Assembly (NCBI GenBank): GCA_963737065.1
Contig: CAVTRC010000001.1
Location: forward strand, 1,632,001 to 1,696,000
Length of the DNA: 64,000 nt
Direction: 5' to 3'
DNA from: Candidatus Eremiobacteria bacterium
Lineage (GTDB): Bacteria; Vulcanimicrobiota; Vulcanimicrobiia; Vulcanimicrobiales; Vulcanimicrobiaceae
Part shown: piece by piece, positions 3,393 to 17,619 of the stretch
How positions within the stretch are numbered: position 1 is the first letter of the stretch
Layout: each line of letters opens with the position of its first letter
Notes under the pieces: model-generated
The model's database searches: none
What the model saw: only the letters and a program-made list of their open reading frames with translations
Told to the model about the DNA's origin: nothing
Position numbers and translations under genes: made by a program

Positions 3393-4541
3393 ATGAATTT
3401 CGATCTGACCGACGAGCAGAAAGCAATCCAAAACCTCGCGCGCGAGTTTGCGCAAAACGAGGTAAAGCCGCGCGCTGAAGAGATGGATCGCGAGGAAGCG
3501 TTCCCATACGACCTCGTGAACAAGATGGCTGAGCTCGGCTTTATGGGTCTGCCGTTTCCAGAAGAATACGGTGGCGCAGGAGCCGACACGGTGAGCTACG
3601 CTCTCGCGGTCATGGAGATCGCACGTGCCGATGCATCGACGGCAATCACAATGGCCGCGCACGTCTCTCTCGGAGCGACGCCTTTCTATTTATTCGGCAC
3701 CGAAGAGCAGAAACAGAAGTATCTCGTGCCGCTCGCGCAAGGCAAGACGTTGTGGGGCTTCGGGCTCACCGAACCCAACGCGGGGAGTGATGCCGGAAAT
3801 ACGACAACCAAGGCCTCGCTTCTAAACGGTCAGTGGGTGATCAACGGAACGAAAGCGTTTATCACCAATTCCGGCACCGAGATCAGCGGCGGAACGACGA
3901 TCACCGCCGTGACCGGCACGCGTCCTGACGGAAAGCTCGAGATTTCCACGCTGATCGTGCCGCAAGAGACGCCGGGCTTCACGCGCAGCAAGAAGTATAA
4001 GAAGATGGGCTGGCGCGCGTCGGACACGCGCGAGCTCAGTTTCAACGATGCAACGGTTCCGCAAGAGAACTTGCTTGGCCCACGAGGCGAGGGCTATCGT
4101 CAATTCCTGACGATTCTGGACGGCGGCCGCATCTCGGTCGCTGCACTTTCGGTCGGCCTCGCGATGGGTGCGTACGACGAAGCGCTTCAGTATTCAAAAG
4201 ATCGCATCGCCTTCGGCAAGCCGATCAGCAAATTTCAGGCGATTCAATTCAAGCTCGTCGACATGCTGTGTGAAATCGAACATGCGAAGCTGATGATTCT
4301 GAAAGCCGCGTGGGAGAAAGATCACGGCCGCGACTACGTGCAAAGCGCATCGCTCGCAAAACTTTACGCCGGCGAGCTTTCACGCCGAGTCGTCAACGAA
4401 GCGGTGCAAATTCACGGCGGCTACGGATTCATGGACGAATATCCCGTCTCGCGCATGTACCGCGATCAAAAAATCAACGAAATCGGCGAAGGCACGAACG
4501 AAGTACAACGTCTCGTGATCGCACGCCTAATGGGGTTGTAG
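3393..4541 (+). CDS. Acyl-CoA dehydrogenase (short/branched-chain type)
   Basis: FGLTEPNAGSD, NGTKAFIT, QIHGGYG, IGEGTNEVQR motifs. Confidence 0.95.
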   Translation: MNFDLTDEQKAIQNLAREFAQNEVKPRAEEMDREEAFPYDLVNKMAELGFMGLPFPEEYGGAGADTVSYALAVMEIARADASTAITMAAHVSLGATPFYLFGTEEQKQKYLVPLAQGKTLWGFGLTEPNAGSDAGNTTTKASLLNGQWVINGTKAFITNSGTEISGGTTITAVTGTRPDGKLEISTLIVPQETPGFTRSKKYKKMGWRASDTRELSFNDATVPQENLLGPRGEGYRQFLTILDGGRISVAALSVGLAMGAYDEALQYSKDRIAFGKPISKFQAIQFKLVDMLCEIEHAKLMILKAAWEKDHGRDYVQSASLAKLYAGELSRRVVNEAVQIHGGYGFMDEYPVSRMYRDQKINEIGEGTNEVQRLVIARLMGL

Positions 4542-4567
4542 CGACAGAACTCCCAGTGTGAAGTGAG

Positions 4568-4764
4568 CCGAGCCGCGTGTCATCGTGATCCGAGCCGTGT
4601 GTCATCGTGATCCGAGCCGCGTGTCATCGTGATCCGAGCCGCGTGTCATGGTGATCCGAGCCGCGTGTCATGGTGATCCGAGCCGCGTGTCATGGTGATC
4701 CGAGCCGCGTGTCATGGTGATCCGAGCCGTGTGCGATGGTGATCCGAGCCGTGTGTCATGGTGA
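4568..4764 (+). repeat. Tandem array of 9 x 22-bp units, consensus ccgagccgcgtgtcat(c/g)gtgat
   Basis: Counted by eye: units start at 4568, 4590, 4612, 4634, 4656, 4678, 4700, 4722 and 4744 (last truncated by 1 nt); no spacers. Confidence 0.95.
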
Positions 4765-4770
4765 GCGCAG

Positions 4771-4797
4771 CAGTGTCATCCTGAGCTTGTCGAAGGA
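4771..4797 (+). repeat. Left arm of a perfect 27-bp inverted repeat (cagtgtcatcctgagcttgtcgaagga), REP-like
   Basis: Exact reverse complement of 5104-5130. Confidence 0.95.
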
Positions 4798-4822
4798 TCG
4801 TCTCGCAGCAGTAGCGCTGGAA

Positions 4823-5125
4823 ATGAAGCGCTACTACGTTTATATGCTGCAATGCGCCGGCGGTTCGTTCTATGTCGGTATTACGAACGACCTTGAACGG
4901 CGCATCGGCGAGCACGACGTTGGCTGGAATCCGGCGTGCTATACGCACGAGCGTCGCCCTGTGCGCCTCGTCTATGTGGAGGATTTCGCGAACGTCGATG
5001 AAGCGATTCGTTGGGAAAAGCAGATCAAAAAATGGAACCGGCTGAAAAAGATTGCACTGGCGAACGGTGACTGGGACGGCGTGCGACTGTTCGGGCACGG
5101 GCGTCCTTCGACAAGCTCAGGATGA
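4823..5125 (+). CDS. Stand-alone GIY-YIG nuclease (UPF0213/YhbQ-like), 100 aa
   Basis: MKRYYVYML...FYVGITNDLERRIGEH...YT..RRPVRLVY.E...EAIRWEKQIKKWNR; its stop codon lies inside the right inverted repeat. Confidence 0.92.
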   Translation: MKRYYVYMLQCAGGSFYVGITNDLERRIGEHDVGWNPACYTHERRPVRLVYVEDFANVDEAIRWEKQIKKWNRLKKIALANGDWDGVRLFGHGRPSTSSG

Positions 5126-5194
5126 CACTGGGGCGCTCAGGAGACACTTGGGGCGCTCAGGATGACACTGGGGCGCTCAGGGTGACACTGGGGG
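5104..5194 (-). repeat. Right inverted-repeat arm (5104-5130) merging into a 4 x 20-bp tandem array (gctcaggatgacactggggc)
   Basis: Units at 5115, 5135, 5155 and 5175, with small variants. Confidence 0.93.
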
Positions 5195-6235
5195 CCATGC
5201 GTTTGCGCCGGGTTGTAACCACTGCGAACCGTCGGCAAATAGGACGCGCCGGACGGAGTAGACGACGGCTCCGGCGCCGTTGAACGGATCGGATGTATCT
5301 GCCAATGCATTTTCGCCGTCGATGACACAGTTGTCGCGCGCGGAATCGACGTCGTGAACGTTTGCCGGGCCGCCGACTTCAACGCCCGGAGCAAACGAAC
5401 CGCGGAGACGAAGCGGTGCAACGCGCCGGATGAACCCCAGCGTATCGAGAATCTCAATGTCGACGTCGACTTCGTTTGCGACCTTTTGTCCGTTGTTCGC
5501 GAACGAAATGCACGCCAAGCCTTCGCTGCCGTCGTTTCGCACGGCAGCAAAACCGCGCGTAACGCGCACTGCGGAACCGCCCGAACCAAGCGTCGAAGCT
5601 GCGAACGTGAGGCCACGCCACGGCTCGGAAGGTGCGGGTTGCGTCGTGTGCGCGGTTGACGCATCGATCAGTGCTCCGACGACCGCCCACGGATTGACCC
5701 CGATGCTCACCGACGAACCGGAGCTTTGTGTCGTCGTGTCCGTCTCCGTTCCGTTCGCGGTGTTTGTGGTCGTTGTTTGCGACGAAGAACTAGACGACGA
5801 CGCGATCGGAATTTGCAATTCGGGGAGTACTGCTCCGAGCACGTTAAACGAATGCCGGCGCGGTGCAGGGGTCGGCGGATTAGTAGGCGCCGGCGCTGCG
5901 GCCGGTTCCGCTAGTGCCTGCACCGTGGCAGGCCACGGTCCGCGAAGGAGATTGTAATCGATCGCGTAGTATGGAACGCCGATTTGCGCGTCGGTTACGC
6001 CGAGCGCGTGCAACGCGCCGCGCCCGTGTGACTCCAGCCAGTACATCATCGCATCGCGTTCGGGAGGCGAGAGCTGCGCAACGCGTGCGGTAACCTGCGC
6101 GAGCGGCGACGTCCGTACGGCGTTCAACGCATCGAGCAACGCGGGTGACGGCGTCGCGTTTTGCGCAAGCGCAGGCGAAACCGAAAATGTCGAAAGGGCA
6201 ACGAGCAGTACCGAAAGCCTATAGAAGAGCGTCAT
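5177..6235 (-). CDS. Secreted hypothetical protein with Ser/Thr-rich linker; paralog of 7281-8096
   Basis: GGAGG RBS, signal peptide ending PALA-Q, shared motifs with 7281-8096; stop codon supplied by the repeat array. Confidence 0.8.
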   Translation of the reverse strand: MTLFYRLSVLLVALSTFSVSPALAQNATPSPALLDALNAVRTSPLAQVTARVAQLSPPERDAMMYWLESHGRGALHALGVTDAQIGVPYYAIDYNLLRGPWPATVQALAEPAAAPAPTNPPTPAPRRHSFNVLGAVLPELQIPIASSSSSSSQTTTTNTANGTETDTTTQSSGSSVSIGVNPWAVVGALIDASTAHTTQPAPSEPWRGLTFAASTLGSGGSAVRVTRGFAAVRNDGSEGLACISFANNGQKVANEVDVDIEILDTLGFIRRVAPLRLRGSFAPGVEVGGPANVHDVDSARDNCVIDGENALADTSDPFNGAGAVVYSVRRVLFADGSQWLQPGANAWPPVSP

Positions 6236-6741: not shown

Positions 6742-7284
6742 ATGATTCGTCGTGCTCTCGTAACGGCCTTCGTTCTACTTCTTGCCGCCGCGCCTGCGTT
6801 GGCTGCGCTTAAGGAGGGAACCAAGGCGCCGGATTTCACGCTGCAGGCCACACAGGGCGGAAAAGTCTTTCCGTTCTCACTTGCGGACGCGTTGAAGAAC
6901 GGACCGGTCGTGTTGTATTTCTATCCGGCTGCATTTACGCCCGGGTGTACGATCGAAGCGCACGAATTCGCGGATGCAATCGACGAATACACCGCGCTCC
7001 ACGCGACGGTCATCGGCGTATCGCACGATCCGTTGGACAAGCTGCAGAAGTTCTCGGTCAGTGAATGTCGCAGCAAGTTCGCCGTTGCCGCTGATAGCGA
7101 TCAAGCGGTTGAAAAACAGTACGATGCCGTTCTCGACAAGGCGCCTCAGTACGCGAACCGCACCTCATACGTGATCGCTCCCGACGGCACGATCATCTAT
7201 ACGTATACGAACTTGAAGCCCGATGACCACGTGAAGAACACGCTCGCCGCACTGAAGGATTGGGAAGCCAAAACGAAACCGTGA
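6742..7284 (+). CDS. Exported peroxiredoxin (BCP/PrxQ family)
   Basis: GGAGG RBS, signal peptide, APDFTL, YFYPAAFTPGCTIEA. Confidence 0.92.
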   Translation: MIRRALVTAFVLLLAAAPALAALKEGTKAPDFTLQATQGGKVFPFSLADALKNGPVVLYFYPAAFTPGCTIEAHEFADAIDEYTALHATVIGVSHDPLDKLQKFSVSECRSKFAVAADSDQAVEKQYDAVLDKAPQYANRTSYVIAPDGTIIYTYTNLKPDDHVKNTLAALKDWEAKTKP

Positions 7285-8096
7285 AGTACACGAACGCTCG
7301 CGTCGCGGCGATGGTTTTGGCCCTCGCCGCCTTTGTTACGCTGTTCTCCCCGCGCGCGGCGAACGCTGACGCATCGCAGCCGCTCATCAACGTGCTCAAC
7401 GAAATTCAGGGCCTCTCGGATAGTGATTTCGCAAGCGTCGTGAGCTGGGCGCGCAACGGCGCACCGCAGCCCTTTATGACGGCGTTTCAGCCGCAGCAGA
7501 CGCAAGGCGACATCCTGAATTTGAAAAGCGACGACCGGTACGCGGTGCTCTACTGGTTGCGCGGTTCCGGCCGCTCCGCACTCTACGCGCGCGGTGCGAC
7601 CGACGCGCAAATCGGCTCGCGCGATCCGCGCCGCGGGCCTTCGCCGACGCCGACGCCGAACCCGTGGCGTAATGTTCCGCTCGCGACGGCATCTCTGGAC
7701 GAAAACGTTCAGGGGAACATCAAGGTCATCGGCGGCTTCGCCGCGGTGCGCCGCGATGGTCGCGGCGCAATTGCATGTGTATCGTTCACGAATGTCGCGG
7801 CAAAAGTTGCGAACGAAGTGGTCTTCGAGTTTCCGCTGCTGAGCGATAGCGGCGTGGAACTCGGAAAATTGACGCTCGATCGCAAAGGCGAGTTTTCACC
7901 CAACGTGGCGATCGAGTCGTTCCGGCAGCTCAGCGACTGGCAAGGCGGATCGATGGGTCCGCGCGACCGCATCGCCAACTGCGCCCAGCGCGACTTAGGA
8001 ACCACGGCGCTGCCCATTCTGCAAGCGCGGCTTGCCGGCTACCGTATCGTCAAGGTGACCTATGACGACGGAACGACCTGGAATCCGGGTCAGTAG
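7281..8096 (+). CDS. Secreted hypothetical protein; paralog of 5177-6235
   Basis: GTGA overlap with the peroxiredoxin stop, signal peptide, shared motifs. Confidence 0.8.
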   Translation: MKYTNARVAAMVLALAAFVTLFSPRAANADASQPLINVLNEIQGLSDSDFASVVSWARNGAPQPFMTAFQPQQTQGDILNLKSDDRYAVLYWLRGSGRSALYARGATDAQIGSRDPRRGPSPTPTPNPWRNVPLATASLDENVQGNIKVIGGFAAVRRDGRGAIACVSFTNVAAKVANEVVFEFPLLSDSGVELGKLTLDRKGEFSPNVAIESFRQLSDWQGGSMGPRDRIANCAQRDLGTTALPILQARLAGYRIVKVTYDDGTTWNPGQ

Positions 8097-17115: not shown

Positions 17116-17619
17116 TTACTGCGGTGGACGGCGATCGCGGTCGCGATGGCGATACTGGCCGTTGTACCCGTAGTATCCGCCGTTGCCGTAGCCGCCGTTG
17201 TTATAGCTGCCGTTACTGTAATAGCCGCCGTTGTTGTAGCCACCGTTGTTGTAGCCGCCGTTGTTGTAGCCGCCGTTATACCCGTAGCCGTTCTGACCGT
17301 TGATGTAACACTGCTGGCCGTTGCAGGCGACCTGCTCGCCTTGGTTTCCCGGATACCACGAGTAACCGTTGGGTGCGACGACATGTCCGTCGGCATAGAC
17401 CGTACTTCCGTCCGGCAAGTATCCCGTCACCGTCGTGGCTTCACGATGCTTGTTCGAGACGTTGATCGCGGTGGCGATGCCGGCAATCGCTGCCGCAGCG
17501 CCGATGATCGTGCGCGTTGTAGCTGCGCCGTCGGCGCGTGCAGGCGCGGCGATCGAGGTCATCATGACCCAGGTGAGCGCGAGTCCCGCAACGGCGGAGC
17601 GAATCAGTGAAGTGTTCAT
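17116..17619 (-). CDS. Secreted Gly/Tyr/Asn-rich protein with YNNGG repeats
   Basis: Signal peptide (PARA-D), hydrophobic Gly/Ala segment, low-complexity C-terminus. Confidence 0.75.
   Translation of the reverse strand: MNTSLIRSAVAGLALTWVMMTSIAAPARADGAATTRTIIGAAAAIAGIATAINVSNKHREATTVTGYLPDGSTVYADGHVVAPNGYSWYPGNQGEQVACNGQQCYINGQNGYGYNGGYNNGGYNNGGYNNGGYYSNGSYNNGGYGNGGYYGYNGQYRHRDRDRRPPQ

Follow-up and report, generated by a model that had tools for sequence, protein, structure and literature searches.

The window analysed here, a 64,000-nucleotide stretch of a Candidatus Eremiobacteria bacterium genome (contig CAVTRC010000001.1, positions 1,632,001 to 1,696,000 of the forward strand; coordinates without a contig prefix refer to the window), carries a small GIY-YIG nuclease gene and two inverted copies of a repeat between two convergent host genes. 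The features of the locus were assigned as follows.

3393 to 4541, plus strand: host acyl-CoA dehydrogenase gene, left neighbour outside the element (Pfam Acyl-CoA_dh N, M and C; orthologues at 91-95% in six of six congeners).
4557 to 4764, plus strand: left outer array of 22-nt units, each the 5' half of the repeat plus a spacer (TRF 4563-4764, 9.2 copies, 95% matches).
4771 to 4797, plus strand: left arm, with the TGTC tag outward, the stem ATCCT/AGGAT (last T at 4798), the GA/GA opposition and a short cap.
4804 to 4808, plus strand: CGCA-type motif a short way upstream of the nuclease start codon (comparison with relatives).
4823 to 5125, plus strand: stand-alone 100-aa GIY-YIG nuclease (PF01541; alignment and model).
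5104 to 5130, minus strand: right arm, an exact inverted copy of the left arm (sequence comparison).
5115 to 5194, minus strand: right outer array of 20-nt half-repeat units, the outermost of which provides the right host gene with its stop codon (TRF 5115-5193, 4.0 copies; junction compared with the congener G003).
5177 to 6235, minus strand: right host gene, 352 aa, no Pfam family (78% orthologue in G003).

The two arms are exact 27-bp reverse complements, which the repeat finder stretches to 36 nt each at 94%. The original prediction of a 100-aa GIY-YIG gene boxed in a perfect 27-bp inverted repeat, and placed between the convergent acyl-CoA dehydrogenase gene and the gene at 5177-6235, was confirmed, although the right arm overlaps the final 22 nt of the nuclease gene, so that the gene does not lie strictly between the arms. 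The last six residues of the protein (PSTSSG) and the TGA stop are encoded by the right arm; the same PSTSSG-type tail was seen again in protein homologues, and the nuclease stop codon was derived from an arm in 22 of 94 loci. The sole Pfam match of the open reading frame was GIY-YIG (PF01541, E 1.6e-17), and NCBIfam gave a sub-threshold intron-endonuclease match only. An alternative start at 4736 (129 aa) was rejected, most homologues starting at the 4823 position. Outward of both arms, TRF detected tandem arrays built from the 5' half of the repeat (4557-4568 looks, by eye, like the degenerate outermost head of the left array), and tandem heads consisting of half-repeats only were present at 26 of the 94 loci. 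The C terminus of the right host gene reads AWPPVSP-stop here versus TWN-stop in the orthologue at the empty site of G003, its last codons here being supplied by the repeat array. As for the region upstream of the nuclease gene, a CGCA-type motif precedes the start in 31 of 37 homologue upstream regions of the lineage, this being a loose motif picked after inspection, and no obvious Shine-Dalgarno sequence was seen by eye in the nuclease upstream regions; the motif at 4804-4808 is possibly a promoter element, perhaps of a leaderless transcript. Note that the proteins encoded at 5177-6235 and 7260-8096 are two secreted-looking paralogues with no Pfam family, the latter being picked up in congeners by tblastn with the former as a query (approximately 30% identity), and that 17170-17290 is a tandem repeat with a 15-nt period, probably part of a coding sequence of low complexity.

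Rather than being unique terminal repeats, the arms belong to a repeat family dispersed through the genome. A genome-wide count of the copies had been proposed with the original prediction: the 24-nt core of the arms has 11 exact copies in the genome (3.08 Mb, 95% complete) and 18 at two or fewer mismatches, and the structure-aware genome scan gave 28 matches, which became 22 distinct family copies when three nested duplicates and three off-family matches were dropped. The same scan on three Markov-simulated genomes gave 2, 2, and 1 matches. Some copies stand alone, and others form inverted dimers or arrays. One copy with a CTGTC head instead of TGTCA (G000:C1:1863428-1863451) lies inside a gene that resembles that for NAD-dependent DNA ligase, just before a KIDG motif, and may be an in-frame insertion. 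The hairpin body was also found with other heads (TTTAG-, CCTG-, and CTTG-type) at G000:C1:46955-47007, 204337, 555354, 857720, and 1840410; perhaps they are relics left by a related nuclease whose tag was different. A BIME-like array of four full repeats at 74-75 nt spacing, with similar but non-identical spacers (G000:C1:2221095-2221340), could pass for a short CRISPR array.

At the homologue loci the repeat consists, in order, of TGTC-A, the first strand of a 4-bp stem, GA, a cap that can be short or extended, TCGA, and the second strand of the stem, TGTCA being the commonest head (249 distinct copies) and AGTCA the next (12). Fully paired stems made up 22 of the 53 distinct stem combinations (shuffle mean 1.96, maximum 8 in 10,000 shuffles), where the copies had been selected on the fixed blocks only and never on pairing. 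GA was opposite GA in 144 of 151 hairpins when the GA positions were left free; we read this opposition as tandem sheared pairs. It is the covariation that carries the hairpin structure, because folding energies do not mark out the lone arm as unusually stable (ViennaRNA, -1.6 kcal/mol, z 0.08; these energies do not cover the proposed bulged-cap structure). In a single strand that spans the cassette, the two arms can also pair with each other. This last property, together with the position in a convergent intergenic region, is what would be expected if the arms were RNA elements, i.e., a terminator or an mRNA stabiliser whose pairing has nothing to do with the specificity of the nuclease. We give this explanation hardly any weight, since Rfam returned no family at the gathering score in 12 homologue loci except a tRNA (the window had only a sub-threshold match), and since it leaves unexplained the genome-level co-occurrence of repeat and nuclease described below.

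The association between the nuclease and the repeat was surveyed for 211 small GIY-YIG genes, taking the 500 nt to either side of each. The 93 close homologues consisted of 15 from relatives and 78 from GTDB (out of 79 loci that were the best of 585 confirmed matches); the window itself, the duplicates L035 and L277, and the partial matches L003, L004, and L270 were kept outside the counts, as were three alphaproteobacterial proteins (L125, L126, and L131) that scored zero by pattern and that showed, by eye, variant tags in two cases and no repeat in one. The repeat was found within 500 nt of 91 of the 93 close homologues (including the best 78 of the 585 GTDB matches), on both sides in 67, and beside 0 of 20 YhbQ/YazA-type genes, and 3 of 98 Ssn-type genes, and in the distal control windows of 2 of 66 loci; these flank counts are tilted toward this clade because the GA motif was devised from its own flanks. 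The tags face outward, as in the window, at 50 of the 67 loci flanked on both sides. Among the GTDB matches listed, the lineage occurs mainly in Ca. Eremiobacterota, Bacteroidota, Nitrospirota, and Patescibacteria. The two alphaproteobacterial proteins with variant tags, L125 and L126 (Methylobacterium and Sphingomonas plasmid records), are lineage members whose GA hairpin is the same but bears CCTC or GTTC as its tag, a hint that the tag and the nuclease subclade vary together.

Co-occurrence was also observed at the level of whole genomes. Among 41 related genomes, 16 were nuclease-positive, and 15 of these had 19-299 matches to the repeat pattern (the remaining one had 1), versus zero repeats in 22 of the 25 nuclease-negative genomes (the other three had 2, 13, and 14). 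The contrast persists inside a single family (16 with versus 9 without the nuclease). We give no p-value for this co-occurrence because the genomes are kin and not independent, and the unpublished genome G036 contributes one zero row and one YhbQ-type row, with no claim hanging on it alone. The window nuclease is the only small GIY-YIG protein found in its genome, the other match being a UvrC-type domain in a 698-aa frame. Thus, the proposal that this nuclease is tied to its flanking repeats held in both surveys, and a partnership of nuclease and repeat is strongly supported. The co-phylogeny of nuclease and repeat, which had been suggested as a check, came out in part: loci that share a dominant stem type tend to group on the protein tree (40 changes versus 54.8 when shuffled, 0/500), a clustering that relatedness alone could produce, and more than one stem type was present at 46 of 93 homologue loci (including the best 78 of the 585 GTDB matches), so that the matching between protein and stem is loose. 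The simpler reading of these sequences is that the nuclease would recognise the tag, the GA/GA opposition, and the cap rather than the stem sequence.

The original prediction had been of an element without a tyrosine transposase, and a RAYT elsewhere in the genome, flanked by the same repeat, had been named as evidence against it. The Y1_Tnp/RAYT search (PF01797) of this 95%-complete genome was empty, so that this objection fell away; no Y1_Tnp was found in any of the 19 repeat-bearing genomes among the 41, and the six of the 41 in which Y1_Tnp is present have zero copies of the repeat. These data bear on the possibility that the repeats are REPs mobilised in trans by a RAYT or another transposase, with a generic YhbQ-like nuclease as a passenger between two of them. 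Gene-less inverted dimers, found at this site in congeners and in other places of this genome, fit that idea, as do the best PDB sequence matches of the protein, which are to UPF0213 (1ZG2, E 1e-15). However, a passenger would not hold the same repeat family at nearly all the surveyed loci of many phyla, and, in the available text of Di Nocera et al. (2013, PMC3733652), repeats with CGTC/TGTC tags are REPs not associated with transposase genes and their partner enzyme is unnamed. A RAYT acting in trans was therefore rejected for this genome and the repeat-bearing relatives searched, and the passenger explanation as a whole is highly improbable. DUF559 as an alternative partner was likewise rejected, not being found in the genome.

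A literature search that covered few subscription papers returned no paper tying GIY-YIG proteins to REP, REPIN, or RAYT besides Chenal et al. (2025, PMC11893778). According to the available text of that paper, the GIY-YIG protein SsnA of Neisseria meningitidis (94 aa) acts on the GTC-tagged NTS/SRM hairpin that flanks its gene only when this is single-stranded DNA, to which it binds and which it cuts a few bases upstream of the hairpin, and the IS-like repeat-gene-repeat layout and the parallel with REP/RAYT are noted for Ssn as a hypothesis. The nuclease-repeat concept, the spreading step apart, is therefore already in print, because SsnA cuts its flanking hairpins there, and the novelty of the idea in the original prediction could not be maintained.

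For comparison of the window protein with SsnA, the Neisseria gonorrhoeae orthologue L271 (not CAX49033) was used as a proxy query, and E-values were calculated at a database size of 1e6. Y7, Y17, and E65 align with Y6, Y17, and E64, the three residues tested in SsnA (N. gonorrhoeae orthologue, same numbering as in PMC11893778), and this alignment shows the predicted catalytic residues to be intact. The window protein has E 5e-7 to the orthologue (36% identity over 75 aa, 81% cover) and, by its E-value though not by its cover, misses the published per-proteome blastp threshold of E<1e-10 and 75% cover. The published SRM pattern has no match in the window between 4301 and 5700, either arm included, and the C-terminal N-x-x-W is lacking in the window protein. 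The clade and Ssn-type sets differ in the same three respects (the clade including the best 78 of the 585 GTDB matches): E<1e-10 to the orthologue was obtained for 6 of 93 versus 96 of 98 proteins, N-x-x-W was present in 6 of 93 versus 93 of 98 proteins, and the SRM pattern was matched at 0 of 93 versus 67 of 98 loci. Core-Ssn proteins were not found in the 41 genomes at E<=1e-15 using one query. The predicted model of the nuclease (pLDDT 87.7) has as fold neighbours, among solved structures, 1ZG2 and 1YWL (UPF0213) and the structure-specific Slx1, with no sequence-specific enzyme among them.

Trees were built from alignments of 99 and 43 rows with only about 95 columns, and in these the core Ssn proteins form one side of a long branch (100/100 and 100/99, respectively) with the window protein outside. 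YhbQ/YazA forms one side at 98/98 in the 43-row tree, again with the window protein excluded, and the lineage lies between YhbQ/YazA and core Ssn; the 99-row tree unites the lineage with Ssn at 98/98. In the AU tests, p-AU was 0.27 for the window protein as the sister of Ssn and 0.34 for monophyly of the window lineage, so that neither arrangement was rejected. When rooted by one UvrC domain, the quick tree roots on the Ssn side, and the constrained UvrC-rooted tree in which the lineage and Ssn are joined scored 4.27 higher (p-AU 0.63). The available text of PMC1564403 characterises YhbQ/YazA as Slx1-like minimal GIY-YIG proteins without a C-terminal Asn, and the window protein fits this description; we infer that the Asn in question is that of the Ssn N-x-x-W. 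The lineage differs from UPF0213/YhbQ/YazA, to which its best sequence and fold matches belong and with which it shares the lack of the C-terminal Asn motif, in tree side (98/98) and in the flanks, the sampled genes of that group having no flanking repeats (0/20). In two relatives (L028 and L031), the frame of a YhbQ-type nuclease continues through the gene that follows it, giving approximately 280 aa in all, the second part of which is presumably cyclophilin-type.

These results allow the relation to Ssn (cd10448) to be weighed. The likenesses are a single-domain GIY-YIG protein of about 100 aa (<150 aa) that keeps the catalytic Tyr, Tyr, and Glu, a gene flanked by dispersed, directional GTC-tagged hairpins, and repeat-rich genomes that carry the gene; the differences are the position of the protein outside the core clade and under the BLAST threshold without N-x-x-W, a hairpin that the SRM pattern misses and that combines GA/GA and a constant TCGA block with a stem that is short and varies in sequence, and a lineage found mainly in the four phyla mentioned above (among the matches listed) and known from sequence. 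It could be argued that the window protein is a plain divergent member of cd10448 whose hairpin escapes the published pattern, with nothing separate about it. The size, the single domain, the GTC tag, the repeat-gene-repeat layout, the catalytic residues, the clade members that pass E<1e-10, the joining at 98/98, and the p-AU of 0.27 for the sister placement would all suit this explanation, against which stand the long branch that sets core Ssn apart without the window protein, the weak match to the Neisseria orthologue, and the distributions of N-x-x-W and SRM; we consider it unlikely. As judged from sequence, the protein is better placed in an Ssn-like neighbouring lineage with a hairpin of its own than in Ssn proper, the reasons for not filing it there being the E-value of 5e-7, the lack of an SRM, and the position outside the core clade. 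Since this side branch of the published Ssn has a different hairpin, the element counts as a variant and not as a kind of its own. Similar GA hairpins, in which the additional T of the TCGA block is missing, accompany L127 and L129, two core-Ssn proteins that branch deeply; this suggests a single origin for the nuclease-hairpin partnership. Note that L127 (Planktothrix plasmid, 601-885) has GA-type hairpins and half-repeat arrays, and that its gene sits between an MmeI-type restriction-modification gene and the DISARM gene drmA.

The locus turns over within the timescale of the genus. An empty junction in related genomes had been proposed as a check on the element, and the locus is indeed not fixed: behind the acyl-CoA dehydrogenase orthologue, which was present in six of six congeners, the nuclease was absent in five, and in the sixth (G004) the contig stops within a repeat array at this site. 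None of the refuting conditions named with the original prediction that could be examined by computation was thus borne out. G003 has a clean empty site (approximately 50 nt between the host genes versus 635 nt in the window), G005 and G002 have inverted repeat dimers without the gene, G001 has a single repeat, and G006 has a remnant. The best nuclease copies of seven congeneric genomes are at five different sites, split copies were found in G001 and G021, and the nuclease is patchy within one family (16 of 25 genomes). No target-site duplication was recognised at the cassette, the search for a phage link gave two weak partial matches only, in viral contigs, and no DNA match of the whole cassette in plasmids covered more than 22% of the query. 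Turnover of this kind is difficult to reconcile with a domesticated nuclease that serves the host, by restricting incoming single-stranded DNA or resolving hairpins at forks, while the repeats spread by another route and nothing is selfish. That explanation draws on the sole in vivo role shown for SsnA in the available text of PMC11893778, i.e., lowered transformation by repeat-bearing DNA, on the Slx1-type branch resolvers among the fold neighbours, and on the single nuclease copy in the genome; nevertheless, the five sites in seven congeners, the split copies, and the patchy distribution look like turnover, and we regard a purely host-serving nuclease as quite improbable.

We therefore interpret the element as an Ssn-like nuclease-hairpin module, with a probability of roughly 65%. 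Counted against this reading are the solved-structure neighbours (UPF0213 and Slx1) and the loose matching of protein and stem, the one nuclease-positive genome with 1 repeat and the three negative genomes with 2, 13, and 14, and the lack of a recognised target-site duplication. The module resembles the REPtron (RAYT/TnpA-REP, GTAG REPs, and REPINs) in that an enzyme gene is flanked by its own repeat family, with solo repeats and inverted dimers elsewhere and tandem mosaics; it differs in enzyme and tag, which are a GIY-YIG hydrolase and TGTC here versus an HUH tyrosine transposase and GTAG in the case of RAYT. As described in the available text of PMC3733652, the CGTC REP superfamily shares with our repeat an unpaired CGTC/TGTC/CCTC tag, an A-T pair opening the stem, opposite-orientation dimers, clusters, and the lack of an associated transposase; its stems are 8-9 bp with loops of 4-5 nt, whereas the window repeat has 4-5 canonical pairs plus GA/GA. 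This comparison with CGTC-1 to -4 was made by description and not with consensus sequences, and the window repeat may equal one of them.

By analogy, the window nuclease most likely works like Ssn. It quite probably binds and cuts the repeat specifically as single-stranded DNA, as SsnA does; the protein would bind the repeat once it is single-stranded and folded, the recognised fold being the unpaired TGTC tag, a variable stem of 4-5 bp, the fixed GA/GA opposition, and a small cap, and the nick would lie a few bases to the 5' side of the tag, like that made by SsnA on the NTS. Because the tags of the arms face outward, the nicks would be placed just outside the cassette on opposite strands. 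GIY-YIG hydrolases are not known to join strands by themselves. The nicks would instead be starting points for repair synthesis or recombination by the host, through which repeats would be copied into further sites, their 5' halves would be multiplied to give the tandem arrays, and the gene would now and then be transferred from one inverted repeat dimer to another. That such cutting drives the spread of the repeats and the movement of the cassette is a step that we favour with some hesitation. A wider reading combines these points and is doubtful: the lineage would be a second, undescribed family of hairpin-guided single-stranded DNA nucleases outside cd10448, distributed over many phyla and recognising a hairpin in which GA/GA is non-canonical and the stem covaries freely, and would also be the actual mobiliser of its own repeats and of a 350-630 bp cassette by nicking and host repair, with no transposase; it would lie between core Ssn and the housekeeping YhbQ/YazA, and so might be the stock of one of them.

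REPs with CGTC/TGTC tags were without a dedicated enzyme in 2013, and Ssn became a candidate for one branch of them in 2025, the spreading step excepted; the partnership is now extended to a hairpin that the published SRM pattern misses. The lineage would add single-stranded DNA-cutting specificities to a family that has been proposed as a tool. With one gene, approximately 22 repeats, no RAYT found, and empty sites in congeners, this genome offers a compact test case in which to ask if REP-like repeats can be propagated by an enzyme that is simply a hydrolase, and the half-repeat arrays may record where cutting and repair start.
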